Below, in pieces: positions 2,711 through 40,387 of a DNA stretch of 56,744 bases. This DNA is from a virus (taxonomy: Duplodnaviria > Caudoviricetes). Where the stretch lies: IMG/VR virus record IMGVR_UViG_3300020381_001070, positions 1 to 56,744 of that record; one strand, given 5' to 3'. A model generated the notes under the pieces. It searched no databases, had not been told where the DNA came from, and saw only the letters and a program-made list of their open reading frames with translations. Numbering within the stretch: the stretch's first letter is position 1; every line of letters begins with the position of its first letter. The translations under genes and the position numbers were made by a program.

Positions 2711-3262
2711 ATGAGTAGTATACCTTACAATTATAGAGAATACCTGGATGACGTTACTAAAATGCGTCAAAGAGGTCATATTGATTCTGGTGAACAAATG
2801 CAATCGCCGTCAAGTGCTGGTAGTCGTGGGCTTGCCAAACTAGATAAATTTACAAGAGATGCAAACCAATTTATGAAAGCAAACATAAATGAAAGTGCAA
2901 CTAGAGAATATCAAAATTTACCAAAAGATAAAATTGAAGAATTGCGAAAGAAATATTTGCCTGATTGGGAATACAAAGATAATAGTTTACAAAAGAGATA
3001 TAAGTTTGTAGATTACTTTGAAACAATTAAATTTTTAATAGACACAGTAAAGCCTCAGGAAGAATTAGATCATCATGCAGATATTGCAATTTTTTATGAT
3101 GAAGTTTTGGTAAAAATTTATACTCATAGAACCAACGATGTCACAGACTTTGATTTCAAAGTGGCAGTACAAATGGATAATATAGCAAAAGCCAAACACG
3201 GTGCTATTGATCCAAGTTATGATCTTGATAGTCTTGTGAACAACACAAAAAATAATTCCTAA
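2711..3262 (+). CDS. Pterin-4-alpha-carbinolamine dehydratase (PCD/PhhB) domain protein with N-terminal extension
   Basis: LPDW...L.KRYKF.DY...E.LDHHADI...Y..V.VKIYTH....VT..D...A..MD matches the PCD fold, including HH and TH catalytic His. Confidence 0.8.
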   Translation: MSSIPYNYREYLDDVTKMRQRGHIDSGEQMQSPSSAGSRGLAKLDKFTRDANQFMKANINESATREYQNLPKDKIEELRKKYLPDWEYKDNSLQKRYKFVDYFETIKFLIDTVKPQEELDHHADIAIFYDEVLVKIYTHRTNDVTDFDFKVAVQMDNIAKAKHGAIDPSYDLDSLVNNTKNNS

Positions 3263-5184: not shown

Positions 5185-5465
5185 TGTACAACTTACTCAA
5201 AGAATTTTGGGTAAAGAGTTACATCACAGATCCATTTGCTTTTTATCTTGAAATATTCTCGGTAATTGTAACCATATGTGGATCAGCGGTATTGACTTTT
5301 ACTTCACCACATCCTATAATGAACATAGTGTTTCCATTATACTGGCTAGGATCTAGCACCATGTGTTGGGCAGGATTTAGACGTAGGTTGGTTTGGATAT
5401 CATGCCTTACAGGTTGGTTTACAATAATGAACACAATAGGATTATACAAAGTATTCATACAATGA
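5184..5465 (+). CDS. Small membrane protein (about 3 TM)
   Basis: Three hydrophobic stretches; GTG start overlapping the previous stop. Confidence 0.55.
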   Translation: MYNLLKEFWVKSYITDPFAFYLEIFSVIVTICGSAVLTFTSPHPIMNIVFPLYWLGSSTMCWAGFRRRLVWISCLTGWFTIMNTIGLYKVFIQ

Positions 5466-8125
5466 GTTACATAGACGCCTTATATAAAAAAGACGAAGAT
5501 AAAATTTACGTTGTAGAACGTGATCCAAAAAAAGGTCGTGTATTTGTGGAGTATGATGCAAGATATGTTTTTTATTATCCAGACAGCAGAGGCAAGCACA
5601 GATCAACCACAGGCGAACAATTACAAAAAGTTACTTGTGCAACATCTAAGGAGTTCATCAAAGAACAACGTATTAGATCTAACAAATCTCTACACGAACA
5701 AGATATCAATCCAGTTTTTAGATGTTTAGAAGAGAATTATCTCGGTAAAGAAACTCCTAAATTGAACGTAATGTTTTTTGATATTGAGGTAGACTTTGAC
5801 CCTGATAGGGGTTATTCGACAACAGATGATCCGTTCATGCCCATTACTGCCATAAGTTGTTATATGGGATGGACGGATCAACTTGTCACACTTGCTGTTC
5901 CGCCTAAAACAATATCAATGCAGGAGGCAAAAGAACTAACAGAACGTTTTCCAAATACTATGTTATTTGATAAAGAAAAAGACATGCTTGATGCTTTTTT
6001 ACAACTAGTTGAAGATGCTGATATTTTGTCAGGATGGAACTCCGAAGGTTATGATATCCCTTACACAGTAGGAAGAATACAAAAAGTTCTCAGTTCTGAT
6101 GATACTAGACGTTTATGTTTTTGGGGAGAAAAACCAAAAAAAAGAACATTTGAAAAATATGGCAGAGAGCAGTTAAGTTATGATTTAATTGGGAGAGTGC
6201 ATTTAGATTTATTAGAACTGTACAGGAAATACACTTACGAAGAGCGACACAGTTTTAGATTGGATGCCATTGGTGAACATGAACTGGGCGAAAAGAAAAC
6301 TATATACGAGGGATCATTAGACAATTTGTATAAAAATGATTTTGGATTATTTATTGAGTACAACAGACAAGACACAAGCTTATTAGCTAAACTTGAAAAA
6401 AAATTAAAATTTATTGAACTAGCAAATGAAATAGCCCATCAAAATACAGTTCTACTACAGACAACAATGGGTGCAGTCGCAGTAACTGAACAAGCAATTG
6501 TTAATGAAGCACATAGACGAGGCATGATTGTGCCAGGAAGAAAATACAGAGACAAGCAAGCAGAACCAGTAACAGCGGCTGGTGCTTATGTGGCCACTCC
6601 AAAAAAAGGTTTACATGATTGGATAGGATCTATTGATATAAATTCGCTATATCCAAGTGTTATTAGAGCATTGAACATGGGTCCTGAAACTATTGTGGGA
6701 CAACTAAGACCTATAATAACTTCTGCAGAAGTAAACAGGGCGAAATCACAAAAAAAAAGTTTTGCAGCCGCATGGGATAACCAATTTGGTAGCTGGGAAT
6801 ATCAAGCAGTGATGAACAAAGAAAAAGGCACTGAAGTTCTAGTAGATTGGACAGACGGTACAAGTGTGAGAATGTCGGCGGCACAATTATATGATGTTGT
6901 GTTTGAAGCTAATAATAAATGGATGCTGAGTGCCAACGGTACGATATTTACATATGAATTTGAAGCAATTATTCCAGGACTTTTAAAGCGATGGTACGCA
7001 GAAAGAAAGGAAATGCAACGTAAAATGCATGATGCTGGTGATAATGAAATTGAAAAAGAATATTGGGACAAGAGACAACTGGTAAAAAAAATTAATTTAA
7101 ATAGTTTGTATGGAGCCATTTTAAATCCAGGTTGTAGATTTTTTGATATGAGAATAGGACAATCGGTCACACTTACAGGAAGATGTATTACAAAACACAT
7201 GGGTGCCAAAGTAAATGAAATAATAGGTGGCAAATATGATCATGTTGGTCAAAGCATTATATATGGTGATACTGACTCTGTGTACTTTTCAGCACATAAA
7301 ACACTTGCAAAGGAAATTGAGTCGGGATCAATACCATGGACCAAAGAGAGTGTTATAAGTTTATATGATAAAATTGCTGATGAGGTCAATACAACGTTTG
7401 CTAGCTATATGAATAAGGCATTTCATTGTCCTACAACAAGAGGTGCAGTGATAAAGGCAGGACGAGAGCTTGTGGCTTTGAAAGGACTGTTTATCACAAA
7501 AAAAAGATACGCAGTGTTATACTATGACAAAGAGGGTGAACGTGTTGATAAAACAGGTAAAGAAGGAAAAGTTAAAGCAATGGGTCTTGATTTGAAGAGA
7601 TCAGATACTCCTGTGTTTGTGCAAAACTTTTTAAGTGATGTTCTCTATAAAGTTTTAATTGGCAACACTGAGGAAGAAGTGCTTAAAGCAATATCTGAAT
7701 TCAGATCGGACTTCAAGGCTAGGCCTGGATGGGAAAAAGGATCTCCAAAACGTGCCAATAACGTAACCGACTATTGGGAAAAGGAAAAAAAACAAGGCAA
7801 AGCAAATATGCCAGGTCATGTTAGAGCAAGTATAAATTGGAACACATGTCGACAAATGTATGGTGACAAATATTCACTGCCTATCACTGATGGTGCAAAA
7901 GTAATTGTTTGTAAACTTAAGAACAATCCATTAAATTACACAAGCATAGCTTATCCTGTAGATGAATTACGTATTCCAGATTGGTTCAAAGACTTGCCTT
8001 TTGATTCTGAAGCAATGGAACAGACTATATTAGATCAAAAAATTGACAATCTGATAGGTGTACTGGATTGGGACGTGCAATCAACGGAGACCAGTAACAC
8101 GTTTAATAAATTATTTGAATTTTAA
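5462..8125 (+). CDS. polB: Family B DNA polymerase (T4 gp43-like) with 3'-5' exonuclease
   Basis: ExoI DIEVD, ExoII WNSEGYD, ExoIII YNRQD; motif A DINSLYPS, B KINLNSLYG, C YGDTDS, KKRYA. ATG 5462 overlaps the upstream stop. Confidence 0.97.
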   Translation: MSYIDALYKKDEDKIYVVERDPKKGRVFVEYDARYVFYYPDSRGKHRSTTGEQLQKVTCATSKEFIKEQRIRSNKSLHEQDINPVFRCLEENYLGKETPKLNVMFFDIEVDFDPDRGYSTTDDPFMPITAISCYMGWTDQLVTLAVPPKTISMQEAKELTERFPNTMLFDKEKDMLDAFLQLVEDADILSGWNSEGYDIPYTVGRIQKVLSSDDTRRLCFWGEKPKKRTFEKYGREQLSYDLIGRVHLDLLELYRKYTYEERHSFRLDAIGEHELGEKKTIYEGSLDNLYKNDFGLFIEYNRQDTSLLAKLEKKLKFIELANEIAHQNTVLLQTTMGAVAVTEQAIVNEAHRRGMIVPGRKYRDKQAEPVTAAGAYVATPKKGLHDWIGSIDINSLYPSVIRALNMGPETIVGQLRPIITSAEVNRAKSQKKSFAAAWDNQFGSWEYQAVMNKEKGTEVLVDWTDGTSVRMSAAQLYDVVFEANNKWMLSANGTIFTYEFEAIIPGLLKRWYAERKEMQRKMHDAGDNEIEKEYWDKRQLVKKINLNSLYGAILNPGCRFFDMRIGQSVTLTGRCITKHMGAKVNEIIGGKYDHVGQSIIYGDTDSVYFSAHKTLAKEIESGSIPWTKESVISLYDKIADEVNTTFASYMNKAFHCPTTRGAVIKAGRELVALKGLFITKKRYAVLYYDKEGERVDKTGKEGKVKAMGLDLKRSDTPVFVQNFLSDVLYKVLIGNTEEEVLKAISEFRSDFKARPGWEKGSPKRANNVTDYWEKEKKQGKANMPGHVRASINWNTCRQMYGDKYSLPITDGAKVIVCKLKNNPLNYTSIAYPVDELRIPDWFKDLPFDSEAMEQTILDQKIDNLIGVLDWDVQSTETSNTFNKLFEF

Positions 8126-8134
8126 ATACAAAAA

Positions 8135-8932
8135 ATGTTAAGCATTGAAGAAATAAAATTATTAATAGAAAAACTCGAAAAAGCCAAAGGCACAGACTTT
8201 CAAGAATTAATTGATAAAAATTTAAAAATTTTGAAAGATATTGAAATTGCTGTGGATGCTAACAACGAACTTGAAATTGATAAAATTGACAAACCGCGAG
8301 ACTGGTACGCAAAAGACCTTGAATTTAAAAAACAAAAACCTAATGTTGATGATCATTTATATAAACGTATTTGCACAAAAATTTACCAATTCAATAAAGA
8401 AAGCCTTTATAATTCATTGGAAATAGGGCCAGGTAATGGAATGTTTTCAAAAGAATTTAGGGGATGGACTACAAATTATTTTTTAGACGTACTACCTGAA
8501 ATAAAAGACAAAGTTTTTAGAAGGTTTAATCCATTACACCGTAAACACTTGAGGTTCCATTTGACTACTAAAACAGATTGCTCTGATATACCTAACGGAT
8601 CGTGTAATTTTGTGTTTAGTTGGGATACATTTGTGTTTTTTTCACAATTACATATTAGAGAATATCTACGTGATCTCAAAAGAGTCCTTATTCCAGGTGG
8701 GTATGGTTTTATACAATATGCTGATTGTCATTATGATTACGATTTAGCCATGGCTAAAAGAAATTATTGGAACTACAATACCAAAACAAAAATGGTTGGT
8801 ATGTTAAAAGCTACAGGCTACGAAGTAGTTGAAACTAACCAATTTGAACAAGGTGCAAACTATGTTATATTTAAACTTCCTGGTAAACAAAATCCGATTG
8901 TTTACAACATTAACGAAATTAATCTTGATTAA
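8135..8932 (+). CDS. Class I SAM-dependent methyltransferase
   Basis: LEIGPGNG; NFVFSWDTF; L.RVLIPGGYGFI. Confidence 0.8.
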   Translation: MLSIEEIKLLIEKLEKAKGTDFQELIDKNLKILKDIEIAVDANNELEIDKIDKPRDWYAKDLEFKKQKPNVDDHLYKRICTKIYQFNKESLYNSLEIGPGNGMFSKEFRGWTTNYFLDVLPEIKDKVFRRFNPLHRKHLRFHLTTKTDCSDIPNGSCNFVFSWDTFVFFSQLHIREYLRDLKRVLIPGGYGFIQYADCHYDYDLAMAKRNYWNYNTKTKMVGMLKATGYEVVETNQFEQGANYVIFKLPGKQNPIVYNINEINLD

Positions 8933-8953
8933 AATCTAAATAACCTATATAAT
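8925..8953 (+). promoter_or_regulatory. Sigma70-type promoter TTGATT-N17-TATAAT (leaderless)
   Basis: -10 ends 7 nt before ATG 8961; no SD. Confidence 0.6.
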
Positions 8954-8960
8954 ATTAACT

Positions 8961-9698
8961 ATGATAGATATCTTAAGAGACATAGTCAAGCATACGCACG
9001 GCTTGGGATTTTTGGATCTTGTTAAAATTACTGGTACCAGTAATGAAACTACAATTGATTCAATGGCTGAAGATAGATCAGTTATCTTGCAAGGATCATT
9101 TCACAAACCACAAACAGAGATGGACGGAACTTTTGGAATGCCACAACTAGGCAAACTAGATATTCATTTAAAATGTCCAGAGTACAAAGAGAAAGCTAAA
9201 ATAAGTGTGTTGAAAGGCACTAGAAATAGTGCTGAGGTTCCAACAGGCATTCACTTTGAAAACGAAAAAGGTGACTTCAAAAACGATTACAGATTTATGA
9301 ACGCTGAAATAATTAACGAAAAGCTTAAAACTGTAAAATTTAAAGGAGTTAAGTGGGACGTAGAAATTGAACCTACAGTAGCGAGTGTGCAAAGGTTCAA
9401 CTTTCAATCAATAGCAAACACTGAACACAATTCTTTTGTTGTAAGAACAGAGAATAATAATTTAGTATTCACTTTTGGCGACCAAGCGTCGCATGGTGGT
9501 GAATTTGTTTTTGCTAGTGATGTGAAAGGTACTCTAAATAAAGGGTGGAGTTGGCCTGTAGCACAGGTATTGCAAATACTGAAACTGAGTGATTCTGCCA
9601 AAGTAATGTTGCACTTTTCAAATGAAGGTGCAATGATGGTGACAGTTGATTCAGGTTTAGGCAAGTATCAATATATTATCCCAGCTCAGGCGCAGTAA
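8961..9698 (+). CDS. Putative DNA sliding clamp (gp45/PCNA-like)
   Basis: 245 aa; two-domain alpha/beta periodicity; PCNA-like C-terminal YQYIIPA; near polB. Confidence 0.55.
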   Translation: MIDILRDIVKHTHGLGFLDLVKITGTSNETTIDSMAEDRSVILQGSFHKPQTEMDGTFGMPQLGKLDIHLKCPEYKEKAKISVLKGTRNSAEVPTGIHFENEKGDFKNDYRFMNAEIINEKLKTVKFKGVKWDVEIEPTVASVQRFNFQSIANTEHNSFVVRTENNNLVFTFGDQASHGGEFVFASDVKGTLNKGWSWPVAQVLQILKLSDSAKVMLHFSNEGAMMVTVDSGLGKYQYIIPAQAQ

Positions 9699-11149
9699 TG
9701 ACAGAAAATAAAAGGCAGGAACACTTAGGAGACTACAGCAGAGATTTTGCGGTGTTCTTGCCTGCTATTTCAAATTTTTACAATACATTCATATCTAAAC
9801 AAAGAGTAACTAACGGAACACATATTCCAACTGACCGTATTCCAAAAGCATTTGACAGTGGTGTAGAAGGACTTAATTTTATAAATCCAGAAGAAGGATA
9901 CTTCACTTACCCAACAGCGTTATATTCGGCAGGCCATGCTTGTTTAGATATGGACAAAGTTAATGACAGAGATAGTATGTGTGTAAACAGAGACAGAAAG
10001 TTTAGCACAATAGTAGGTGACTCTGGAGGATATCAACTAGGAAAAGGTGTAATAAAATTTGATTGGAAAGATTTTGAAGGTAACAAAGCAAACACGGTAA
10101 GAAGCAATATACTAAATTGGCTAGAACTAACAAGCGATTGGGCAATGACACTTGATGTTCCTACGTGGGCGGCAGATGATTTAAATTCACCAAAAACAGG
10201 ATTGAACAGTTTTCAAGACACACTAGATGGAACTATATACAACAACAAATTTTTCCAAAAGAATAGACTAGGACAAACAAAATTTTTGAATGTGCTACAA
10301 GGTGATGATTGGGAAACTGCTCAAATTTGGTATGATGCTGTAAAAGATTTTGAATTTGAAGGTTGGGCAATGGGCGGTATCAATATGTGTGATATGGAAG
10401 TGATGCTCAAACGTCTAATCATAATGAGAGATGAAAACAAATTAGAAGGTAAAGATTGGATGCACGTACTTGGTACATCACAGTTAGACTGGGCGTGTTT
10501 CTTAACACAAGTGCAAAGACAAGTAAGACAGCACATTAATGAAAACTTCACAATCAGTTTTGATTCAGCATCTGCATTTTTATCAACTGCTAATGGACTA
10601 GTATATACACACAACTTGTTTACTCCAAAAAGATGGTCTTACATAATGGAAAAAGCTCCAGATGACAAAAGACTAAAAGGCAGTAATATTAAATTTCCTT
10701 TTCCATCGGCAATTGGTGACAGATTAACAATGGGAGATATTTGCTGGTATGGTGAAGGCGATCTAAATAAAAACAACAAAGAAGGCAAAACAAGTTGGGA
10801 CAGTTTCAGTTACACACTAATGATGGCACACAATGTATACAATCATATAAGAGCTGTGCAAATAGCAAATGATATGAATGATATAGAAATGATAAAGTAT
10901 CAGCCAGATCCAAAAGCATGGCAAAAAATAAAAAATGCAGACAATACAGATGAGCCTAGTGAATTTGTACCAAGAAACATATTGTATTTCAACACACTAG
11001 TGGAGCAAGTGTTTACAAGTGAAAGACCAATGGAGTTGATATCAAATTCTAAAGCATTCCTGGCAGATATAAGAGGCACAAGATGGCAAAGAGCAACAGG
11101 TGGTGGTAAAGGTAAAAACAACTTTAGTTCTTTATTTGAAGGAGGATAA
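9698..11149 (+). CDS. dpdA: tRNA-guanine transglycosylase-like DNA 7-deazaguanine insertase (DpdA family)
   Basis: TGT motifs DSGGYQ, MTLDVP, NVLQG, GWAMGG, HVLG, SFDS, HN; clustered with folE and queE. Confidence 0.8.
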   Translation: MTENKRQEHLGDYSRDFAVFLPAISNFYNTFISKQRVTNGTHIPTDRIPKAFDSGVEGLNFINPEEGYFTYPTALYSAGHACLDMDKVNDRDSMCVNRDRKFSTIVGDSGGYQLGKGVIKFDWKDFEGNKANTVRSNILNWLELTSDWAMTLDVPTWAADDLNSPKTGLNSFQDTLDGTIYNNKFFQKNRLGQTKFLNVLQGDDWETAQIWYDAVKDFEFEGWAMGGINMCDMEVMLKRLIIMRDENKLEGKDWMHVLGTSQLDWACFLTQVQRQVRQHINENFTISFDSASAFLSTANGLVYTHNLFTPKRWSYIMEKAPDDKRLKGSNIKFPFPSAIGDRLTMGDICWYGEGDLNKNNKEGKTSWDSFSYTLMMAHNVYNHIRAVQIANDMNDIEMIKYQPDPKAWQKIKNADNTDEPSEFVPRNILYFNTLVEQVFTSERPMELISNSKAFLADIRGTRWQRATGGGKGKNNFSSLFEGG

Positions 11150-12630: not shown

Positions 12631-13161
12631 ATGAGAGTACCGTATACAAATTTTAAAACTAGAATTGGTGATACTGATGAAGTAGGTGGTTGTACTTTTA
12701 TTGGTGGCGAATGGAAAGACATAGACACTGAAGAACTTTTTGCAAATAAAAAAGTTGTTGTATTCGCACTTCCTGGAGCATTTACACCAACTTGTTCATC
12801 GCAACAAGTACCAGGGTATGAGGCAAAGTATGAAGAGTTCAAAACGGCAGGCATTGATGAAGTGTATTGTATATCAGTGAATGATGCATTTGTTATGAAT
12901 GCATGGTTCAAAGACCAAAATGTTAAACAGGTTAAACCTATAGGAGATGGTGAAGCTGTTTTCACACAAGGGATGGGCATGCTTGTGAATAAACCAAAGC
13001 AAGGGTTTGGTATGAGATCTTGGAGATATTCAATGCTTGTAGATAATGGTAACATAGTAAAACAATTTATTGAACCAGGAAAAAATAATGCAAGTGATGA
13101 CGATGATCCGTTTGAGGTATCAGATGCTGACACAATGTTAAACTTTATAAAAGGAAAATAA
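12631..13161 (+). CDS. Peroxiredoxin (Prx5/type II)
   Basis: LPGAFTPTCS, SVNDAFVM.AW, GMRSWRYSM. Confidence 0.93.
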   Translation: MRVPYTNFKTRIGDTDEVGGCTFIGGEWKDIDTEELFANKKVVVFALPGAFTPTCSSQQVPGYEAKYEEFKTAGIDEVYCISVNDAFVMNAWFKDQNVKQVKPIGDGEAVFTQGMGMLVNKPKQGFGMRSWRYSMLVDNGNIVKQFIEPGKNNASDDDDPFEVSDADTMLNFIKGK

Positions 13162-14327
13162 TGAAAATTTTCTACATGGGATTGGAGCCATACGAAGGTA
13201 GATATACTTTACAGCTTTCGGATTGGACTGAACGTGCTTATAAGAAACGTGGTATAGAATATGTTGTTGTGCCTGGCACAACTATTGATGATTCCAAAGC
13301 AATAGTCACAGGACAAGTATTAGATGCACATGGCAGAAGCTATTTTGGTATGAGTCAAATGATGAATCTTGTACAGATGATGAAGGCAGGTGAAATTACA
13401 TCAAGTGATATTATCTTCTTTGAAGACATGTTTCAACCAGGTATTGAAGCATTGCCGTACATACTACAACAATCACCAGAAGAATACAGGCCAAAAATAT
13501 ATCTAAGATGTTTAGCACAATCAATTGATCCAGATGATTTTGTTCATGTTTGGGGTATGAGTAAATGGATGAGCTTGTACGAAGAAATGTGCAATGAGAT
13601 TCCAAATGTAACTATTCTAGCAAGTAATGAGGAAATGGTTGCAAACATGCGTATTGCCAACTGGAAGGCTCCTATTTACAACATATCAGGTTTAAGTTTT
13701 GGCAAAGAAGAAGTACAAAGTAGAGTAGAACAAAAACTTTTCATTGAAAGAAAACAAAGAGTGGTTTTTGGCGCAAGATGGGACCAAGAAAAACAGCCAC
13801 AATTTTTTATGGATCTTGCACAAGCGTACAAACAAAAACATCCAGAAACAGAATTTGCAATATGTTCAGGTGGACCTTTGAGATCTAATAACGAGTACTA
13901 TGTCGACGAGGCAAAACATTTAGCTAATGAAGGCATAATAACGATAAATGAAAATTTGCAAAAAAATGATTATTACAATATACTTGCAGACTCAAGAGTA
14001 TTATTTAATTGTGCTTTACAAGACTGGACATCTAACACAGTCAGTGAAGCAGATGCGTTAGGTTGTAATGTGCTATTTCCAGCATACAGATCATTTCCAG
14101 AAGTGTTTTCAAATGACCATACAAGAATGTATGTGCCTTGGTCACAGCAGGACGCAATGAGTAAATTAGAAATATTATTAAGTAAACCATCCCCTAGTAT
14201 GGGTCAAATATCTGATTGGACTGACAGTACCATAGACAGAATGATAGACATCATGACAGGCAAGGGCGAACAATGGAGAAGAGATGGACCCCACTACAGA
14301 ACACCCGTTTCAGAAAACAAATATTAA
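13161..14327 (+). CDS. GT-B fold glycosyltransferase (GT4-like)
   Basis: RWDQEKQP, Y..IL..SRV, QD..SNT.SEA.ALGC..L.P..RSFPE acceptor/donor motifs. Confidence 0.8.
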   Translation: MKIFYMGLEPYEGRYTLQLSDWTERAYKKRGIEYVVVPGTTIDDSKAIVTGQVLDAHGRSYFGMSQMMNLVQMMKAGEITSSDIIFFEDMFQPGIEALPYILQQSPEEYRPKIYLRCLAQSIDPDDFVHVWGMSKWMSLYEEMCNEIPNVTILASNEEMVANMRIANWKAPIYNISGLSFGKEEVQSRVEQKLFIERKQRVVFGARWDQEKQPQFFMDLAQAYKQKHPETEFAICSGGPLRSNNEYYVDEAKHLANEGIITINENLQKNDYYNILADSRVLFNCALQDWTSNTVSEADALGCNVLFPAYRSFPEVFSNDHTRMYVPWSQQDAMSKLEILLSKPSPSMGQISDWTDSTIDRMIDIMTGKGEQWRRDGPHYRTPVSENKY

Positions 14328-15315
14328 AAGCCCTAACAAAGCAGTGCTAGTCACAGGCGGTGCTGGATATGTTGGGTCTCATACTTGTAAATTACTTGCA
14401 AAAAATGGTTACGTGCCTGTCGTTGTTGACCGGCATTACAACAAAGGCCTTGTGTCATTTGGCCCAAACTACAATTTACAACTACCACAAGAAATAGATA
14501 GATTAGATGAAATAGTAAAACGTTACAATATCACAAGTTGTATACACTTTGCTGGCAGTACAAGTGTGCCAGAATCTGTGTCAAATCCTTCGCTATACTA
14601 CAAAAACAATTTAATAGTAACACTAAGTCTACTAGATAAGTTAGTTTCCTTAGACATAAAAACTTTTGTGTATAGTTCAAGTGCCGCAGTTTATGGCGAT
14701 CCAGGAATGCGTAAATGTAAGGAGTCAGATGAGGCAAAACCAATTAGTTCTTATGGAGCAAGTAAATTAATGATGGAGCAAATTTGTAAAGACTATAAAG
14801 TTGCTTACGGATTATCTAGTGTGGGGCTAAGATATTTTAATGCCGCTGGAGCCGACCCAGAAGGTGAAGTAGGAGAACTTAGAAGTAAAGAGACACACAT
14901 TATACCACTAGCCATAAAGGCATCAAGACAAGGTAAGCCTTTCACAATGTTTGGAGATCAATATAACACTGAAGATGGCTCGTGTGTAAGAGACTATGTT
15001 CACGTTATGGATCTAGCTGATGCACACTTGAAAGCACTTAACTTTGCTTCGGAAAATACTATATCTGAGGTGTTTAATTTAGGCTCTGGAGCTCCTGCTT
15101 CAAATAAAGAACTATTAGACACAGTTCAAAAATACACAGGAAAAATGGATATACAAATACATCCAAACCGTCCAGGAGATCCTGCGTATTTGGTTGCAGA
15201 TATAACCAAAGTAAAAGAAATATTGGGATGGCATCCTAATCAAAGTTCAATTGATAACGTAGTTGCGACTGCTGTAAAATGGTACAATAAAAAGAATAAA
15301 AAGGACATACAATAG
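14284..15315 (+). CDS. galE: UDP-glucose 4-epimerase
   Basis: TGGAGYVGSH, SSSAAVYG, YGASK, LRYFNAAGA, RDYVHV.DLA.AH. Confidence 0.92.
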   Translation: MDPTTEHPFQKTNIKSPNKAVLVTGGAGYVGSHTCKLLAKNGYVPVVVDRHYNKGLVSFGPNYNLQLPQEIDRLDEIVKRYNITSCIHFAGSTSVPESVSNPSLYYKNNLIVTLSLLDKLVSLDIKTFVYSSSAAVYGDPGMRKCKESDEAKPISSYGASKLMMEQICKDYKVAYGLSSVGLRYFNAAGADPEGEVGELRSKETHIIPLAIKASRQGKPFTMFGDQYNTEDGSCVRDYVHVMDLADAHLKALNFASENTISEVFNLGSGAPASNKELLDTVQKYTGKMDIQIHPNRPGDPAYLVADITKVKEILGWHPNQSSIDNVVATAVKWYNKKNKKDIQ

Positions 15316-15755
15316 TGTCCGAGCAAATTGCTGTCAGTATGCACTTTGGTGTGCAAACACACAAGCCTAATTATTTGCCGATTGTAGAAATTAAATTAGA
15401 TGAGCTTGTTGTAATTAAAAAGCATGAAATAAGGCATGACAATGTGTTAAATTTTAAATTAGATTTATTGGACAATAAAGAACATACCCTCACAGTCAAC
15501 AGGACAGGACATAATGAAAAGGATAAGCAAATATTATCAATAATAAATTTGACAGTTGATGAAATTAATCTAAATAAGTTATTAGATATGACAGTGTACA
15601 AACCAGATTATCCTAAGTTATGGCTAAAAGAACAACAAGATGCTGGGCATGATCAACCAAAATATCAAAAAGGTTGGCGAGATTTTGGATTCAATGGCCA
15701 GTGGCGGATGAACTTCACAACTCCTTTTTACACATGGCTACTGAAAAACACATGA
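15315..15755 (+). CDS. Hypothetical beta-sandwich protein, similar to the N-terminus of 24288..25337
   Basis: P..I.., L...R(T/S)G, L.I....V..I, NG.(W/Y) shared. Confidence 0.5.
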   Translation: MSEQIAVSMHFGVQTHKPNYLPIVEIKLDELVVIKKHEIRHDNVLNFKLDLLDNKEHTLTVNRTGHNEKDKQILSIINLTVDEINLNKLLDMTVYKPDYPKLWLKEQQDAGHDQPKYQKGWRDFGFNGQWRMNFTTPFYTWLLKNT

Positions 15756-16894
15756 TAGATCCAAAAAAAAAATATAATTTGTTTAGACAAAACAAAAATT
15801 TTTGTGTAGTACCATGGACAAATTTTGAACTTTACACAAATGGTGATGTTCGTACTTGTAGTGTAGGAAGAACTAGACTAGGAAATGTAAACAAAACTAG
15901 CATACATGATATACTTGGTGGCGATAAACTTACAAGTATTAGACAAAATATGTTAGATAACAAGGCTGATAAGAACTGTGGTTGGTGTGTACATAGAACA
16001 ATTTCAGATAACAACTTTTCTTATTTGCGTGATCATTATAATTCAAGACTAATTGATGAGGATATTGATTATCTTGATAAGAATAATTTTGATCTACGAT
16101 TTATTGACTTGCACTGGTCTAATATATGTAACTTGCGTTGTGTAATGTGCTGGCCACAACAAAGTAGTCTTATAGCTAAAGATGAAAAAGTTGTGACAGC
16201 ATCTGTAAACAAAAAAAATATAAACATGATAATTGATATGATTAAAAAAAATCAAAGCAACTTGAAAGAAATTTATCTCAGTGGTGGTGAACCTTTTTAT
16301 ATTCCTTACAATACAATCCTGCTAGAACAATTAGAAAACACAGACATACCTTTAAGAATTAATACCAATATGCACTGGCAAAAAAATAATAAACTTTTTA
16401 AAATATTATGTAAAAAATTTAAAAATGTTCAATTAACAATGAGTGTAGATGCACTTGGTAGTAAATTTAATTATATACGTAACGGCGCCAATTGGAATAG
16501 ATTTATTTCAAACCTAAAGTATGTGCGAGATAATACAAATTTTGACATACGTGTTAATTCTATTTTTAGTGTTATGAATGCAATAGATGTAGATAAGGTT
16601 GTAAATTTTTTCTACCATAAAGAAAATATTAAAGACATTACAATAAACATTTTACATAGGCCTGCTCCTATTGATGCAAAAAATTATCCAACAGAAAAAA
16701 AAGCAGAGATTATAAAAAAATTAGAACAATGCTTAAAAACTTTAGCAAAGGAAGATACAAATTTAATTAATAACATTAAAAACTGTATCATGCAAATTAA
16801 ATTGCCAAAGCAAGAGAATTATATTTCAACTTTAGATAATATTACAAAAAGGCATACAACTAAGTGGCAAGAAATGTTTAAGGACTTAGTATGA
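15752..16894 (+). CDS. Radical SAM enzyme with N-terminal Twitch/SPASM-like Cys cluster
   Basis: FCVVPW..C..CGWC; CNLRCVMC; SGGEP; NTN; ATG 15752 overlaps the upstream stop. Confidence 0.88.
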   Translation: MIDPKKKYNLFRQNKNFCVVPWTNFELYTNGDVRTCSVGRTRLGNVNKTSIHDILGGDKLTSIRQNMLDNKADKNCGWCVHRTISDNNFSYLRDHYNSRLIDEDIDYLDKNNFDLRFIDLHWSNICNLRCVMCWPQQSSLIAKDEKVVTASVNKKNINMIIDMIKKNQSNLKEIYLSGGEPFYIPYNTILLEQLENTDIPLRINTNMHWQKNNKLFKILCKKFKNVQLTMSVDALGSKFNYIRNGANWNRFISNLKYVRDNTNFDIRVNSIFSVMNAIDVDKVVNFFYHKENIKDITINILHRPAPIDAKNYPTEKKAEIIKKLEQCLKTLAKEDTNLINNIKNCIMQIKLPKQENYISTLDNITKRHTTKWQEMFKDLV

Positions 16895-17538: not shown

Positions 17539-18258
17539 ATGAACGATAGACTAAAAGATAGTTGGGCACCAGAAGGGCCTGTAAGTAAAACAATAAAAGA
17601 AAGAATACAAAAAGCTGGCAAGAGATTTCATTCAAACGACAACATATCTGAATTTATAGAAGATGGCGAGATGGATCTATTACAAGCAGAAGTACAAGAA
17701 AAATTACAAGGAGTCTTAGACAGTCTTGTCATTGACACACAGAATGACCACAACACACAGGAAACTGCAAAACGTGTGGCAAAGATGTACATCAGAGAAA
17801 CATTTGGTGGTAGATTCAAACCAGCGCCAAGAGTTACAAGTTTTCCTAACATGGGCTACAAAAGCATGTACACTAGTGGTCCAATATCCATTAGATCAAC
17901 GTGTGCCCATCACTTTCAAAACATTGTAGGCAAGGCATGGATTGGTATTATTCCAAACGGTGAGGTTATTGGACTTAGTAAGTTTAATAGAATAGTGCAT
18001 CACATAGTTGAAAGACCGCAAATACAAGAAGAGATGACAACACAGATTGCTGATGAACTGAAAAAATATGCTAAAACGGAAAACCTTGCAGTAGTTGTAA
18101 AAGCCGAACATCATTGTATGACACACAGAGGTGTAAGAGAGCATGAAAGCGATATGACAACAGCGATAATGCTTGGTGCTTTTAAGGAAGATCCAGCAAC
18201 CAGAGATGAGTTTTATAAAATTTGTATGAGCATGAAAGGTCATGGTAATGGCAACTAA
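17539..18258 (+). CDS. folE: GTP cyclohydrolase I
   Basis: ETAKRVAKMY, STCAHH, IGLSKFNRIV, RPQIQE, H.CMTHRGV. Confidence 0.95.
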   Translation: MNDRLKDSWAPEGPVSKTIKERIQKAGKRFHSNDNISEFIEDGEMDLLQAEVQEKLQGVLDSLVIDTQNDHNTQETAKRVAKMYIRETFGGRFKPAPRVTSFPNMGYKSMYTSGPISIRSTCAHHFQNIVGKAWIGIIPNGEVIGLSKFNRIVHHIVERPQIQEEMTTQIADELKKYAKTENLAVVVKAEHHCMTHRGVREHESDMTTAIMLGAFKEDPATRDEFYKICMSMKGHGNGN

Positions 18259-18553
18259 AAAAAAATTACAAAAGAAAAAATTGACAAAGAAACAGATCAA
18301 AGAAATGCAAGCAAATGTTCAATCTGACATGCAGGAATGGACACTAGGCGGTGGTGAATTGAATGTAGGCACCGCAACAATTACCGGAAGCCCAATGGAT
18401 AATGACTTTGAAATAACTTATGGACAAATGGATATGGGATTTGACGAAGACGAACTGAAAAAAAAGTACCCTGCTTTACAAGACGCACATGAACACTATC
18501 AAAATATTTTAGATATGTGTAGAACACGAGAGAAGGAAGAGAATGAGGATTAA
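18248..18553 (+). CDS. Hypothetical protein
   Basis: Basic N-terminus; KYPALQDA.EHY motif. Confidence 0.5.
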   Translation: MATKKKLQKKKLTKKQIKEMQANVQSDMQEWTLGGGELNVGTATITGSPMDNDFEITYGQMDMGFDEDELKKKYPALQDAHEHYQNILDMCRTREKEENED

Positions 18554-19592
18554 AGAAGACATAAAACTTAACTTTGATGATGTGTTAATGGAACCTAAAA
18601 GATCTACATTAAGTTCAAGACGTGACGTTGACATGACTAGGAAGTTTACATTTATAAATTCGGGTAAAGTAATGAACTTTACGCCTATCTTTGCAAGTAA
18701 CATGGACGGCGTTGGCACATTTAGCATGGCAAAGGTGTTACAAGAACACAAAATGATGACTGTAATTACTAAAAGCACGCCATTGGACAAATGGAAAGAG
18801 GCTGTTGGAACTGGCCTGCGATTACAAAGTGTATCTGTTTCCGTAGGTACTAACAAAATGTGGGATAATGACGCCGCTGATTATAGGAATATGGAGGCAG
18901 TCTTACAAAGTTTTCCAGACGTCAAAATGATTACAGTTGATGTGGCAAATGCATACCATCAAAATTTTGTGGATTTTATTAAAAAAGTTAGAGATGACTA
19001 TCCTGAAAAAGTAATTGTTGCTGGCAATGTTGTTACTCCGGAGATGGTAGAAGAATTAATTATTAATGGTGCTGACATGGTTAAGATTGGTATTGGACCT
19101 GGTTCTGTATGTACAACAAGAACAATGACCGGAGTAGGTGTGCCACAGTTTTCAGCAATATTAGAATGTGCTGACGCCGCGAATGGAGTAGATGGACACA
19201 TAATGGCTGATGGAGGCTGTGTTTATCCTGGTGATATAGCAAAAGCATTAGGTGGAGGTGCTCATGCTGTAATGATTGGAGGTATGCTAGCAGGACACAA
19301 TGAATCAGAAATTCAGGTAGAAGACGGCAAACGTGAATTTTATGGCATGAGTTCAGACCGTGCAAGAGAAATTCACGGCAAAAGAAAAGATGGCTACAGA
19401 GGAAATGAAGGTCGACATGTATCTCTACCCGATAGAGGACCTGTAAATGATACCGTTGAAGATATTTTAGGTGGAATACGATCAGCGGCCACATATATTG
19501 GTGCAAGGCGACTTAAAGATATGCCAAAATGTTCTACCTTTGTAAGGGTTGAAAATAACATTAACAGAGTATATGAGCGATACACAAAGTAA
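18543..19592 (+). CDS. guaC: GMP reductase
   Basis: KLNFDDVL..PKRSTL.SR, NMDGVGTF, DVAN.Y, GIGPGSVCTTR, FYGMSS; no CBS domain. Confidence 0.92.
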   Translation: MRIKEDIKLNFDDVLMEPKRSTLSSRRDVDMTRKFTFINSGKVMNFTPIFASNMDGVGTFSMAKVLQEHKMMTVITKSTPLDKWKEAVGTGLRLQSVSVSVGTNKMWDNDAADYRNMEAVLQSFPDVKMITVDVANAYHQNFVDFIKKVRDDYPEKVIVAGNVVTPEMVEELIINGADMVKIGIGPGSVCTTRTMTGVGVPQFSAILECADAANGVDGHIMADGGCVYPGDIAKALGGGAHAVMIGGMLAGHNESEIQVEDGKREFYGMSSDRAREIHGKRKDGYRGNEGRHVSLPDRGPVNDTVEDILGGIRSAATYIGARRLKDMPKCSTFVRVENNINRVYERYTK

Positions 19593-19911: not shown

Positions 19912-21066
19912 ATGATTCCTGATAAGAATACGTTTTGTGTAATGCCATGGTTTGGTCTTACCTTAGATAGCAGAAACAGATTGTCTCCATGTTGTAATAT
20001 TAACAAATGGACATACACCTATGACCAAGTAGAAGAATATTGGGCATCAGACGAACTAAAAAACTTACGTAAAGACTTGTTAAACGGAGTCAGAAACAAT
20101 ATTTGTAACAAATGCTGGATTAAAGAAGATCACGGAGGCCAGTCACAAAGACTTATTTCGAATTATGCAATAAAGGGAAAAATTAGAAAACAAATTAATA
20201 ATCCAAAAATAGAAGATATTCAATACTTTGATTTAACAACTGGTAACTTGTGTAACCTAAGATGCCTTATGTGTAAACCTAGTTTGAGTAGTCAAATATT
20301 AGCTGAAGCCATACAACATCCATATCTGAAAGAAATGCATAGTCCTACAGAACACTACGAACAAATAAAATTTGACTGGGGTAAAAGCACTGACTTTATG
20401 AAATGGTGTGACGCATATCTTTCGCAGGCAACAATTATAAATTTAAGCGGAGGTGAGCCATTAATTATTCCATGGTTACCACAAATCTTATCTAAGATTC
20501 CTGCACAGCAAAAAAAGAAATGTGTGCTACAAATGACTACTAATCTTACAAAAATAAATGATATTATATTTGATAGTTTCAAGGATTTCAAAAAGGTTTG
20601 GCTAAATGTTTCTTTAGATGGCACAGAAAAAACTTTTGAATATGTAAGAAACAAGCATGACTGGAACACGTTAGTGAAAAATATTGAATACATAGAAGCT
20701 AAAAATTCACCTAATGTTCAGTTTGGAGTAAACCATGTTGTGCAAGCCATAAGTTATCACTCAATACTAGATTTAGTAAATTTTTGTGATAATCATAAAA
20801 TGTTAATTAATCCAATTACAATTGATAGACCAAGTAGTTTCCATATTAGTTCGTTATCCTTGGACAGTAAAAAAACTTTTTTAGACAACACAAAAAATTA
20901 TAACGGTTTTAATCAAAATTTTATAAACTTTGTACGTGAACATACAAGAGCTCATTTAGCACAAGATCCAATTTTAGTACAGGAATGTATTAATTATTTG
21001 GAAAAATTTGATAGGGCAAGACACACAGACTGGCGTAAAGTATTGCCGGTTGAAAATTTTGCCTAG
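19912..21066 (+). CDS. Radical SAM enzyme with N-terminal Twitch/SPASM-like cluster
   Basis: FCVMPW..PCC..CNKC; CNLRCLMC; SGGEP; TTN. Confidence 0.88.
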   Translation: MIPDKNTFCVMPWFGLTLDSRNRLSPCCNINKWTYTYDQVEEYWASDELKNLRKDLLNGVRNNICNKCWIKEDHGGQSQRLISNYAIKGKIRKQINNPKIEDIQYFDLTTGNLCNLRCLMCKPSLSSQILAEAIQHPYLKEMHSPTEHYEQIKFDWGKSTDFMKWCDAYLSQATIINLSGGEPLIIPWLPQILSKIPAQQKKKCVLQMTTNLTKINDIIFDSFKDFKKVWLNVSLDGTEKTFEYVRNKHDWNTLVKNIEYIEAKNSPNVQFGVNHVVQAISYHSILDLVNFCDNHKMLINPITIDRPSSFHISSLSLDSKKTFLDNTKNYNGFNQNFINFVREHTRAHLAQDPILVQECINYLEKFDRARHTDWRKVLPVENFA

Positions 21067-21083: not shown

Positions 21084-21551
21084 ATGGAAGATTCAAAAAA
21101 AAATTACTTTACCACAGGGCAAATGCGTAATGCATTATTACAAATTGAAGACCAAATGGTACACTCAAATTGGATGCCAAATATAATAATTGGACTTAAT
21201 CGAGGTGGACTTATCCCTTCTGTATATCTGTCACACAGGCTAAATGTAACACACGAATCAATTACCATTAGATTAAGAGACAATGAATCTAATCGCAAGC
21301 CCGATCTAAGTAATTTGGAAAAAGCCTTTGCTTTTCAAAAAAAAATATTGATAGTTGATGATATTAATGATTCTGGAAAAACACTGAAGTATATTGAAGA
21401 TAATTTTGGTAGACCAAAAGAGCGTATAAGATTTGCTGTGTTGGTTAACAACAAGCCTAGCATCACAGCGGTAGATTATTTTGGTTATCAAATCAACAAA
21501 GACGAGGTGCCTAGTTGGCTTGTTTTTCCGTGGGAAGAATGGAGCAAATAA
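21084..21551 (+). CDS. Purine phosphoribosyltransferase (Gpt-like)
   Basis: GLNRGGLIP; PRPP loop LIVDDINDSGKT; WLVFPWE. Confidence 0.88.
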   Translation: MEDSKKNYFTTGQMRNALLQIEDQMVHSNWMPNIIIGLNRGGLIPSVYLSHRLNVTHESITIRLRDNESNRKPDLSNLEKAFAFQKKILIVDDINDSGKTLKYIEDNFGRPKERIRFAVLVNNKPSITAVDYFGYQINKDEVPSWLVFPWEEWSK

Positions 21552-22992: not shown

Positions 22993-23413
22993 TATCTATC
23001 ACATCTGGGCAGACCATCATAAAGATGTAGATGCATATGATTTTGCAAATAAAATGCGAAAATTTTTAGATGGTTTAGTCAGTATGGGCAAAATGGAAAA
23101 CTATAGACTTACAAGAGCTAAATTAGGATTCAGATCAATGGATCTGCCCGAGTTTCACATCATGATGGAGTTTAAAAATATGCAACAACTAGATGACAGT
23201 ATGACATCTGTATTACGTAATGAAAAAAATATTGACGAATCACATGTTTCATTTAATAGGCTAGTAGACACAGAAACTATTCAACATTTTTTATACAGAG
23301 ATTTTCCTGATGATCTAAATACATCGACATTGACATCACAACAAAAACAATATACAAATGAAGAAATAGTACAAGCAACAAAAAAGATAGATCCTAAAAT
23401 ATGGAAAAACTAA
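22985..23413 (+). CDS. Hypothetical protein (DUF6614-like dimeric alpha/beta barrel)
   Basis: TTG start with GGAGG SD; R.KLGF...LPEFHIMMEF..M.QLD; LYRDFPD. Confidence 0.55.
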   Translation: MADIYHIWADHHKDVDAYDFANKMRKFLDGLVSMGKMENYRLTRAKLGFRSMDLPEFHIMMEFKNMQQLDDSMTSVLRNEKNIDESHVSFNRLVDTETIQHFLYRDFPDDLNTSTLTSQQKQYTNEEIVQATKKIDPKIWKN

Positions 23414-24288
23414 GGTATTCAGAAATATTTTATTCTGTACAAGGCGAAGGTAGATTTGTAGGTGTACCAAGTGTGTTCTTTCGTGTATTTGGTTGCAACT
23501 TTAATTGCCACGGATTTGGTCAAGGCAGAGATAAATCAAAGTGGTTGAAGCCGGAAGAAATGCCATATATGACGCAGGACTTATCGCATGTAAAACATGT
23601 AAGAGATCTGCCAGTTGTGGAAATAGGATGTGACGCTAGTGCCAGTTGGGCTAGCAGATACAAACATTTAGTCAGTTGGGACACTGTAGATGACATTGCG
23701 GTTAAAGTAAAACAATATACTCCGAACAACAAATGGACAAATGATAATGGATCAGATATACATTTTATAATTACAGGTGGCGAACCAATGCTATGGCAAC
23801 GTGAAACACAGCAGTTGCTTAGACAGCCTGAATTTAATGATTTGAAAAATTTAACAATAGAAACAAACTGCACTCAACCTTTTAAAGCTGAATTTGAAAG
23901 ATTTTTACAGGGCTTAGTGCATGGGGATTACACAAAAGAGCCAGTGCATATCACTTGGTCAACATCACCTAAATTATCAATATCAGGAGAACATTGGGCA
24001 AAAGCTATTAAGCCGTTTGTAGCTAGACAATATCACAAAATACCTAATACACATTTGTATTTTAAATTTGTAGTACAAGACGAACAAGACTTAGAAGAAG
24101 TAGAAATGGCAAGGAAAGAATACAATGAACTAGGAGTCGACGCGGATATCTACTTAATGGCTGTTGGTGCCACGCAAGAAGGACAAGCAAAAACATCGAA
24201 ACAAGTTGCAGACATTGCATTGCAAAATGGGTATAAGTACTCTCCAAGACTACACGTTGATTTATTTGGAAACAAATGGGGCACATAA
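23401..24288 (+). CDS. queE: 7-carboxy-7-deazaguanine synthase (radical SAM)
   Basis: SEIFYSVQGEG..G.P.VF.R.FGCN; ITGGEP; IETN; SPKL; SPRLH. Confidence 0.9.
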   Translation: MEKLRYSEIFYSVQGEGRFVGVPSVFFRVFGCNFNCHGFGQGRDKSKWLKPEEMPYMTQDLSHVKHVRDLPVVEIGCDASASWASRYKHLVSWDTVDDIAVKVKQYTPNNKWTNDNGSDIHFIITGGEPMLWQRETQQLLRQPEFNDLKNLTIETNCTQPFKAEFERFLQGLVHGDYTKEPVHITWSTSPKLSISGEHWAKAIKPFVARQYHKIPNTHLYFKFVVQDEQDLEEVEMARKEYNELGVDADIYLMAVGATQEGQAKTSKQVADIALQNGYKYSPRLHVDLFGNKWGT

Positions 24289-34895: not shown

Positions 34896-35214
34896 TAATT
34901 GGTTGCAACTTACAAAAGATTTTGTAAAAGAATGGCCGGAAGTTTTGGAGGGACTACACTTCCAAAATCTCCCGGTCAAGTATCTTGAATATGTCAATAT
35001 AAGTCTTAAAAATAATATTACTATACATTATAATATCAAAAAAGAGCTAAGAATAAAAAAGCAAGATACAGTTGCTAAATTTCTTAAAAAAACTATCCAA
35101 ATAAATTATCAAAAAATAAAAAGCATAGACCTTAAATTTGATATTCCAACTTTGAAAAAAGATATGGAATCAAAAACAACTGCAATATTACAAAAAACTT
35201 TTAATAGTAATTAA
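34867..35214 (+). CDS. Hypothetical phage protein
   Basis: WPEV...LP..YL; last gene of the + arm. Confidence 0.55.
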   Translation: MPKKLPPKNSNWLQLTKDFVKEWPEVLEGLHFQNLPVKYLEYVNISLKNNITIHYNIKKELRIKKQDTVAKFLKKTIQINYQKIKSIDLKFDIPTLKKDMESKTTAILQKTFNSN

Positions 35215-36518: not shown

Positions 36519-37440
36519 AATAGTTTTTTAGTCCTTTGTCTAAGGTTGTCTTAGGCTGATAGCCCAGTAGATCTTTAGCCCTAGCAATATCTAGTGTTCC
36601 ACGAAGAGGATAAAGATCATGTGTGCCTGTATCCTCAATATCAGATTCACTTGTTGTAATGCCAATAATTTTTTCTGCCAAAGATGCTAAACTAGTTGCA
36701 TTACCATTTGTAATATTGAAACTTACATTTGATACTTGCGATAATGCCGCTTTAATAATTCCATCTGCCGCGTCTTCTATGTATGTAAAGTCAACTTTAT
36801 TTTTACCGTTATGTAAAGTGATTGTTTCATTTTTCATTGCCTTTTCAAAAAATTTACTGACCACCCTATCAGGAAGATCGCCAGGCCCGTACACTCCAGA
36901 TGGGCGAACTACAGCATAATTGAGACCTTCACGTTTAGCAAACAATTTTGTTAATCTTTCTCCAGTCAGTTTAGCTTCCCCGTAAATATTAATTGGTTTT
37001 GTTTTTGAATCTTCTTTTGCGCCGTCTTTGAAATCTCCATAAACCATACTGCTACTAACATAGACTATTTTTTGTACTCCAAATTTTGCACAATGCCATA
37101 ATACATTTGTTGTAGTATCTACAACTTTAGGCACTCCATTAATTGGATCATTTTCAACAATTTTAGCACGAGGATATGTTGCAAGATGAATCACAATGTC
37201 AGGATGATATGAAAATGCTTTAAGACATGTACCTCTATCTAGTATATCGCCGTATACAAAGCTAACATTCTCTCGGTTCCAATTCATTTGTCGCCATTCA
37301 AAGAGCTTTTGTAATTCTTGTTTATCCAGTAAACCATATGTGTCGTGATTATCGACTATAGTAATTGAATGATCCTGTGACAGTATTTCTACAATCTTTG
37401 AACCAATAAATCCTTTGCCGCCTGTAATTAATATTTTCAT
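36484..37440 (-). CDS. NAD-dependent NDP-sugar epimerase/dehydratase
   Basis: TGGKGFIGS; SSSMVYG; YGEAK; R...VYGP; DFTYIED. Confidence 0.9.
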   Translation of the reverse strand: MKILITGGKGFIGSKIVEILSQDHSITIVDNHDTYGLLDKQELQKLFEWRQMNWNRENVSFVYGDILDRGTCLKAFSYHPDIVIHLATYPRAKIVENDPINGVPKVVDTTTNVLWHCAKFGVQKIVYVSSSMVYGDFKDGAKEDSKTKPINIYGEAKLTGERLTKLFAKREGLNYAVVRPSGVYGPGDLPDRVVSKFFEKAMKNETITLHNGKNKVDFTYIEDAADGIIKAALSQVSNVSFNITNGNATSLASLAEKIIGITTSESDIEDTGTHDLYPLRGTLDIARAKDLLGYQPKTTLDKGLKNYYEWLRQYSSKI

Positions 37441-37443
37441 CTT

Positions 37444-40383: not shown

Positions 40384-40387
40384 AACT

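Follow-up and report, generated by a model that had tools for sequence, protein, structure and literature searches.

A DpdA-like transglycosylase of an uncultured phage carries a polymerase-type C-terminal peptide that may dock it on the phage sliding clamp

Introduction

Short C-terminal motifs that bind the sliding clamp are a known feature of B-family DNA polymerases, and the peptide of the RB69 polymerase has been seen bound to the RB69 clamp (PMC3201878). In phage T4, the C-terminal region of the polymerase gp43 binds the clamp gp45, and a disordered internal loop of the T4 DNA ligase, EPEGLDFLFD, which was noticed for its likeness to the gp43 tail, binds gp45 with a Kd of about 10.7 uM and has been crystallised in the gp45 hydrophobic pocket (PMC6212786). 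Phages also encode DpdA enzymes of several subfamilies, described as DpdA1 and DpdA2 (PMC6884629) and as DpdA3 and DpdA4 (PMC10516641), and phage nt-1, which encodes a DpdA2, carries dPreQ0 in its DNA (PMC6884629). According to a 2023 survey, all 7-deazaguanine insertion is post-replicative and the replacement of guanine ranges from <0.1% to 100%, depending on the DpdA subfamily; the word 'clamp' occurs 0 times in the main text of that survey (PMC10516641). The bacterial DpdA depends on a DNA-bound accessory protein, the ParB-like ATPase DpdB, which in a model of its closed dimer forms a ring around DNA, and the study that describes this pair reports that no stable DpdA-DpdB complex was seen (PMC10164549). 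A DNA-bound ring that aids a DpdA is thus a known theme. Clamp-client peptides and DpdA enzymes are each known; their combination is new, and our literature search found no paper that links DpdA to a clamp. Here we describe such a combination in a DNA stretch of 56,744 bases from an uncultured tailed-phage record (IMG/VR IMGVR_UViG_3300020381_001070), hereafter the window, in which a predicted DpdA-like transglycosylase ends in a peptide that resembles the C-terminus of the polymerase encoded by the same phage.

Results

Four co-oriented genes on the plus strand occupy positions 5393-11149 of the window and encode, in this order, a family B DNA polymerase (PolB), an S-adenosylmethionine (SAM)-dependent methyltransferase, a protein of 245 amino acids and a protein of 483 amino acids. 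PolB (5393..8125, 910 amino acids) is of the T4/RB69 type: it matches Pfam DNA_pol_B (E 3e-37), DNA_pol_B_exo1 and phrog_262 (E 9e-193), and its best sequence match in the Protein Data Bank (PDB) is RB69 gp43 (E 8.5e-62), a protein of almost equal length. The PolB reading frame as given begins at TTG; its actual start codon may be slightly further downstream. An earlier note on this DNA, made from the sequence alone, had claimed that PolB and the 483-residue protein end in the same kind of peptide, and this is what we find, at the very positions given there, all of which were right. PolB ends in TETSNTFNKLFEF, with SNTFNKLFEF and the stop codon at 8093-8125, and its putative clamp-binding tail, NTFNKLFEF, is encoded at 8096..8122. 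The 483-residue protein (9698..11149) ends in RATGGGKGKNNFSSLFEGG, with the putative motif of the clamp-binding type, NNFSSLFE (residues 474-481), at 11117-11140. Its C-terminus reads ATGGGKGKNNFSSLFEGG before the stop codon, so that a flexible Gly/Lys-rich linker, GGGKGK (residues 468-473; 11099..11116), precedes NNFSSLFEGG. The phage records give KKASLFDMFDF as the end of RB69 gp43 and EEKASLDFLFG as that of T4 gp43, and the LFEF end of the window PolB shares the pattern [LM]F[DE]F with RB69 gp43. Across 42 unique PolB tails the sequence is kept as NTF[NG]xLFxF.

The match between the two tails exceeds chance. The pattern F..LF occurs three times in the 69 non-overlapping open reading frames (ORFs) of the window (17,804 amino acids), and two of these occurrences lie 7 and 8 residues from the C-termini of PolB and the 483-residue protein. 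The longer pattern N.F..LFE is found in these two proteins only, and none of the other ORFs among the 69 has the motif near an end. In the AlphaFold2 model of the 483-residue protein, the predicted local distance difference test (pLDDT) score falls below 50 for residues 468-476, so this part of the tail is predicted to be disordered, and a short helix is predicted at residues 477-481.

Conservation of the motif was followed through related loci from IMG/VR, from bacterial and metagenome-assembled contigs and from GenBank phages, which we label with L-numbers (L001 is PA5oct, L002 is Vibrio phage 2.275.O and L327 is Campylobacter phage CP220). The locus search used a 12-sequence subset, the 64-sequence alignment having no conserved stretch. 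In a set of 12 homologues (38-52% identity), residues L479 and F480 show conservation of 90% or more against a variable linker, whose place is taken in relatives by another G-rich sequence (such as GARLQGGP...). The motif is retained in homologues down to about 30-40% identity, again with a variable flanking linker. A count over full-length cluster representatives found the strict pattern F..[LM]F in 18 of 110 C-terminal 60-residue tails as against 4 of 733 body windows of equal length, and in 65 of 89 proteins the best score of a position-specific scoring matrix (PSSM) is higher in the last 60 residues than anywhere in the body. The earlier note had proposed conservation among homologues as a check on its idea, and the motif is indeed kept across more than 100 related phage loci with the order PolB, clamp, DpdA. 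The consensus common to both tails is N-T-F-[NG]-x-L-F-[DES]-[FV].

Most relatives outside the window's own clade, for example those at L011:5809-7344, L019:9995-11653 and L001:7998-9620, continue after the LF motif with an acidic tail of 25-45 residues, which the window's clade does not have. This tail holds a second conserved element, approximately D/E-x-F...D-D-x-L-x-x-L-E, which may bind a second replisome partner. In PA5oct, where the DpdA-like protein is gp316, the polymerase is annotated as two coding sequences split by a putative Hef-like homing endonuclease gene (L001:1608-6834). Additional motif matches in the PA5oct genome, in the baseplate wedge protein and in virion proteins, were considered as clamp clients and set aside as probably due to chance.

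Within individual genomes the tail of the DpdA-like protein mirrors that of PolB. The window pairs NTFNKLFEF of PolB with NNFSSLFEG of the DpdA-like protein, PA5oct pairs HFDSLFGW-stop with SFNSLFDV, and Vibrio phage 2.275.O pairs NNTDLFDW-stop with NNNDLFGW-stop; the corresponding pairs are LQAFFEF-stop and LNEFFEF-stop in L144, VDDLFG-stop and VNDLFD in L106, and the identical NTFGSLFSF in both proteins of L030. Using one representative per lineage, we compared the identities at six variable motif positions with those of shuffled pairings. With clustering at 60% (11 clusters, three of them left out for lack of a tail motif), the 8 representatives gave 15 identities against 9.1 +/- 2.4 (P 0.013), and at 70% (16 clusters, four skipped) the 12 representatives gave 21 identities against 12.8 +/- 2.9 (P 0.005). 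The same test scored with BLOSUM gave P values of 0.03 and 0.02. These sequence comparisons support covariation of the DpdA-like motif with the PolB tail at the lineage level.

The motif also goes together with the clamp gene. In a survey of 164 unique homologues from 202 loci, a clamp gene was present in the locus of 104 homologues, of which 87 have the strict motif in the tail, 12 have a relaxed xF variant at the same place (e.g. NELFDW, SNSLFVE, NAVFDF) and one (L024) is degenerate. The remaining four (L098, L103, L109 and L110) have no tail motif; instead, the motif stands in an internal insertion, at residues of about 393-448, and reads GSGMFDW, GGLFNF, GGLFDW or STFDSLFEH. No clamp gene was found in the locus of the other 60 homologues, and 46 of these are without the motif. 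The 14 regular-expression matches among them comprise nine on short or low-GC phage-like contigs with missing or unrecognised flanks and five in high-GC bacterial loci, which are probably chance matches. Most of the motif-less homologues belong to high-GC alphaproteobacterial chromosomal loci whose full 10-kb flanks contain neither clamp nor PolB. The contrast that the earlier note had suggested looking for is therefore seen: the motif is present where the locus has a clamp and absent from chromosomal homologues without one.

Several further features were observed in these loci. In L095, L098, L103, L109 and L110, where a polymerase-like motif is internal and missing from the C-terminus, 3-5 kb separate the dpdA-like gene from the clamp gene. 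In Vibrio phage 2.275.O, the DpdA-like gene is followed by a gene (L002:9705-10817) for a protein with no homologue in the window, which begins MFNELFDF... just after a good ribosome-binding site and thus has a polymerase-type motif at its N-terminus. Neighbours in three sampled alphaproteobacterial loci (31 proteins) include type I restriction-modification subunits, an integrase and helicases. The motif-less homologues in the alphaproteobacterial chromosomes L180, L209 and L202 adjoin a conserved protein of unknown function of about 592 residues, with type I restriction-modification, integrase and helicase genes in the vicinity, and these loci may represent an undescribed Dpd-like modification or defence island.

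The 245-residue protein (8961..9698, plus strand) is, in its predicted structure, a sliding-clamp protomer of the PCNA type. An AlphaFold2 model from a 25-sequence alignment has a pLDDT of 93.9 and a predicted template modelling (TM) score of 0.89. The top 50 Foldseek matches of this model in the PDB are all PCNA (from E 1.2e-11; TM 0.64-0.72), VIA-align against PCNA gives Z 18-19 and a root-mean-square deviation of 3.1-3.6 over 224-229 of 245 residues, and by all three methods the two-domain protomer fold spans the whole length of the protein. The clamp assignment on which the earlier note had made its idea depend is thus borne out at the level of fold. A profile of the 49-member family aligned by hhalign with 80 gp45 homologues gives a probability of 58.7 (P 9.5e-5) over 175 collinear columns, while 11 controls (reversed, column-shuffled and unrelated) give P values of 0.06-0.57; against only three gp45 sequences the probability was 0.4, and the relation emerged only with deeper alignments. 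Neighbours in the ESM Atlas are PCNA and gp45 clusters, and homologues are named PCNA or beta clamp in two GenBank records. Pfam and NCBIfam have no match to this protein, PHROGs assigns it only to a family of unknown function, and PDB searches by phmmer and by profile returned nothing credible; the rows for HA-70/HA3 and the RB69 polymerase in the profile search were weak and at chance level, and we rejected them.

The 483-residue protein (9698..11149, plus strand) is, by its model and sequence profile, a divergent member of the tRNA-guanine transglycosylase (TGT)/DpdA superfamily and a predicted DNA transglycosylase, in agreement with the DpdA-like identity first proposed for it. The AlphaFold2 model has a pLDDT of 92.8 and contains the TIM-barrel TGT fold: the top 50 Foldseek matches in the PDB are all TGTs, from E 4e-8 with probability 1.00, and include the Z. 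mobilis, human and archaeosine enzymes, with TM scores of 0.5-0.56 when normalised by target length and TMq values of 0.41-0.45, which are lowered by large insertions. A 64-sequence profile (A1) aligned by hhalign with the DpdA2 family of Vibrio phage nt-1 gives a probability of 98.0 (E 2.3e-13; 187 columns), compared with P 0.29 for a reversed control, and places DSGG, LDxP, LG and ISxDS of the two families in register; DSGG[YF]Q, LDxP and GWAxGG are likewise in register with the Z. mobilis TGT. Four residues, D108 (of DSGG), P155, H256 and D289, do not vary among the 64 homologues, and D153 is conserved in at least 90% of them; D108, D153 and D289 match what we take to be the catalytic Asp residues of TGT, in the motifs DSGG[FY]Q, LDxP and SxDS.

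Pfam PF01702 has no match in the window or in the PA5oct, 2.275.O, nt-1 and CP220 records and matches 3 of the 64 homologues at E <= 0.1. This test does not discriminate, because nt-1 and CP220, with their reported DpdA2 and DpdA3, are also without a match. Profile A1 recovers PA5oct and 2.275.O as positive controls and finds nothing at E <= 10 in the nt-1 or CP220 records, the latter scanned as a whole record; the family of the 483-residue protein therefore appears to form a separate branch. Homologues in this branch are 483-680 residues long.

The order PolB, clamp, transglycosylase is general across the collected loci. In the 141 loci that have both clamp and dpdA genes, the gap between them is at most 10 nucleotides in 56 and 11-500 nucleotides in 68. 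In the window the stop codon of 8961-9698 (TAA) overlaps by one base with the start codon of 9698-11149 (ATG), giving TAATG at 9696-9700, as had been reported; this coupling is limited to the window's own clade and a few others, whereas clamp/dpdA adjacency is general. The further claim that the genes stand under one promoter was not upheld: promoter-like sites in the region number 35, compared with 30.5 +/- 5.4 in shuffled sequence, which is no enrichment. A TTGATT-17-TATAAT site lies at 8925-8953, directly upstream of 8961. The methyltransferase gene between PolB and the clamp gene (8135..8932, plus strand; Pfam Methyltransf_23/11/25) is found in the window's clade only, where the gap from PolB to the clamp gene is 829-889 nucleotides, as against about 55-62 nucleotides in L024, L045 and L063. 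The window itself has a G+C content of 34.5% and is a fragment that CheckV estimates at about 16% of a genome, which implies a jumbo phage.

Genes for 7-deazaguanine synthesis lie near the DpdA-like gene in three lineages. In the window these encode a GTP cyclohydrolase I (FolE; 17539..18258, plus strand; Pfam GTP_cyclohydroI, E 3e-47; phrog_2197) and a QueE-like radical SAM enzyme of the 7-carboxy-7-deazaguanine synthase type (23401..24288, plus strand), which matches phrog_2076 over its full length (E 1.9e-51) and the NCBIfam QueE models only at its N-terminus and below cut-off. FolE catalyses the first step of 7-deazaguanine synthesis. The PA5oct locus contains QueE, and that of Vibrio phage 2.275.O contains QueF, QueC, a Gat-type amidotransferase, FolE and a vitamin-uptake (COG1738) transporter. 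For PA5oct, Iyer et al. (2021) mention a 'deazaguanine synthesis/incorporation system' (PMC7824862).

Beside FolE the window encodes a pterin-4a-carbinolamine dehydratase (2711-3262), an enzyme of the GMP reductase/IMPDH family (18543-19592) and a phosphoribosyltransferase (21084-21551), a purine and pterin gene set that may feed the deazaguanine pathway. Twitch/SPASM radical SAM enzymes are unusually numerous (13161-16894, 19912-21066 and 35211-44004) and are accompanied by a carbamoyltransferase, nucleotide-sugar epimerases/dehydratases, glycosyltransferases and methyltransferases; this set may serve further hypermodification of bases or sugars, or glycan synthesis. CP220 (L327, 100966-111676 of the record) likewise has its deazaguanine genes inside the replication module, since those for QueC and FolE are interspersed with the genes for the polymerase, whose C-terminus reads ...ETLEEW, a 'possible sliding clamp', a ferritin-like protein and the gp41 helicase.

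Discussion

We estimate a probability of roughly 0.7 that the transglycosylase described here docks on the phage sliding clamp through its polymerase-like tail. The enzyme would exchange guanine in double-stranded phage DNA for a 7-deazaguanine supplied by the phage FolE, the QueE-like protein and further enzymes. Behind its catalytic barrel, a disordered Gly-rich linker would present an N-x-F-x-x-L-F-E peptide that copies the C-terminus of the phage polymerase; this tail peptide, GKGKNNFSSLFEGG, is the proposed ligand of the clamp trimer, and the PolB and enzyme peptides would both insert into a hydrophobic pocket of the PCNA-like clamp encoded directly upstream. Held in this way on clamps that are loaded at the fork or left behind on the lagging strand, the enzyme could slide along the new duplex and modify newly made phage DNA. 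Docking on the clamp would therefore make base exchange coupled to replication, and may bring a gain in processivity and in the distinction of self from non-self DNA.

Several observations weigh against this proposal. No clamp loader, no QueC and, by model, no QueD was found in the window, which covers about 16% of the genome. Neither the 483-residue protein nor the clamp is named by any model of Pfam, PHROG or NCBIfam, and the clamp homologue of PA5oct, gp314, is annotated as a 'structural protein' from virion mass spectrometry. The tail of L024 has only TYNKLMIV, with no LF dipeptide. In the PA5oct genome the relaxed pattern also matches a baseplate wedge protein, 37 residues from its end, and because of this match the relaxed pattern alone is not specific. 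The covariation test assumes that lineages are independent, and it picks the DpdA motif with a generic PSSM made from PolB tails. Finally, nt-1 is T4-like and has a gp45 clamp, yet its DpdA2 lacks a polymerase-like tail; a clamp tether is thus not general to phage DpdA.

Other explanations of the shared peptide have to be considered. It could be functional and yet be received by another protein common to PolB and the transglycosylase, such as a single-strand-binding protein, a helicase or its loader, or a factor that gathers replication proteins at one site, and the D..L..LE element conserved in the acidic tail of most relatives does suggest at least one further partner. However, PolB belongs to the RB69/T4 type (E 8.5e-62) and ends in the same pattern as RB69 gp43; the T4 gp43 C-terminal region is described as binding gp45 (PMC6212786) and the RB69 peptide has been seen on its clamp (PMC3201878); and in most loci the enzyme gene directly follows the clamp gene. 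We consider a different receptor unlikely. The thought that the resemblance has no function at all, being due to chance or to a remnant of recombination by which a neighbouring gene received a copy of the polymerase gene's 3' end, might draw on the shortness of the motif and on the relaxed match in the PA5oct baseplate protein, but it is hard to reconcile with a motif kept to about 30-40% identity while the linker varies, with the count of 18/110 tails against 4/733 body windows, with covariation with the PolB tail, with relocation to an internal loop in one subgroup and with absence where no clamp gene is nearby, and we regard it as very improbable.

It is also conceivable that the tether to the clamp is real while the enzyme does something else, acting as a clamp-borne DNA glycosylase or repair enzyme, or on tRNA, with no insertion of 7-deazaguanine. 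QueC was not found in the window, TMq to TGT is only 0.41-0.45, with large insertions, and chromosomal homologues sit in apparent defence islands with unknown partners, all of which would fit such an activity. Yet the enzyme retains the catalytic Asp motifs of the TGT and DpdA families (with D108 and D289 invariant and D153 nearly so), the profile match to DpdA2 reaches 98% and the DNA of nt-1 is reported to contain dPreQ0 (PMC6884629), and deazaguanine synthesis genes lie nearby in three lineages, one of them the PA5oct system listed by Iyer et al. (PMC7824862). This alternative seems slightly less probable still than a different receptor, and we favour a base-exchange enzyme that is held on the clamp.

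More tentatively, and at rather less than even odds, we speculate that the clamp of a large clade of jumbo phages, most of them uncultured, acts as a tool-belt in DNA hypermodification, on which a polymerase-mimicking peptide would have been re-invented at a C-terminus, in an internal loop and at the N-terminus of a neighbouring enzyme, so that the tether makes a distributive enzyme processive and couples it to the fork. If true, this would explain how post-replicative transglycosylation can reach very high or complete replacement of guanine, and it would confine the mark to DNA copied by the replisome of the phage itself. A DpdA branch with the clamp-docking peptide of the polymerase offers a concrete and testable route to fork-coupled base exchange, and fork coupling would give processivity and limit modification to DNA bearing phage clamps. 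It would also add a DNA-modification enzyme to the phage clients of gp45/PCNA, so far made up of replication and transcription proteins, and it suggests a sequence rule for finding clamp clients in uncultured jumbo phages, namely to seek the polymerase tail on other proteins. PA5oct can be cultivated, and a direct test of the idea is therefore possible.

By analogy, the closest precedent for the logic of polymerase-tail resemblance is T4 DNA ligase. Like T4/RB69 gp43 and the ligase loop, the window enzyme has a short hydrophobic peptide in a disordered region, be it tail or loop, with a likeness to the C-terminus of the cognate polymerase, and the internal gp45-binding loop of the ligase has its parallel in the internal-loop motif of the subgroup formed by L095, L098, L103, L109 and L110. 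In T4 and RB69 the clamp clients are the polymerase, the ligase and a transcription factor, whereas the predicted client in the window is a DNA base-exchange enzyme; the window clamp also differs from T4/RB69 gp45 in that it escapes the Pfam gp45 models and is closer to PCNA.

With the phage DpdA subfamilies the window enzyme shares the TGT-fold core and a neighbourhood of 7-deazaguanine genes, but its branch is longer (483-680 residues) and has the linker and the polymerase-like motif. Two DpdA2-like ORFs from IMG/VR (L333 and L334) end in ...PINLEELF, which could, judged by its sequence, be another clamp-type tail in a different DpdA branch. Compared with the bacterial DpdA/DpdB pair, no DpdB was seen in the window, and the proposed ring is the replication clamp, which would be reached by a peptide motif. 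In eukaryotes, DNMT1 and UNG2 are PCNA clients that are recruited to the fork via a PIP-type peptide, which couples their mark to replication. The arrangement proposed here would resemble theirs in bringing a DNA-modifying or base-excising enzyme to the fork through a clamp peptide, and would differ in its domain of life, in its enzyme family and in its chemistry, which would be base exchange rather than methyl transfer or base excision.

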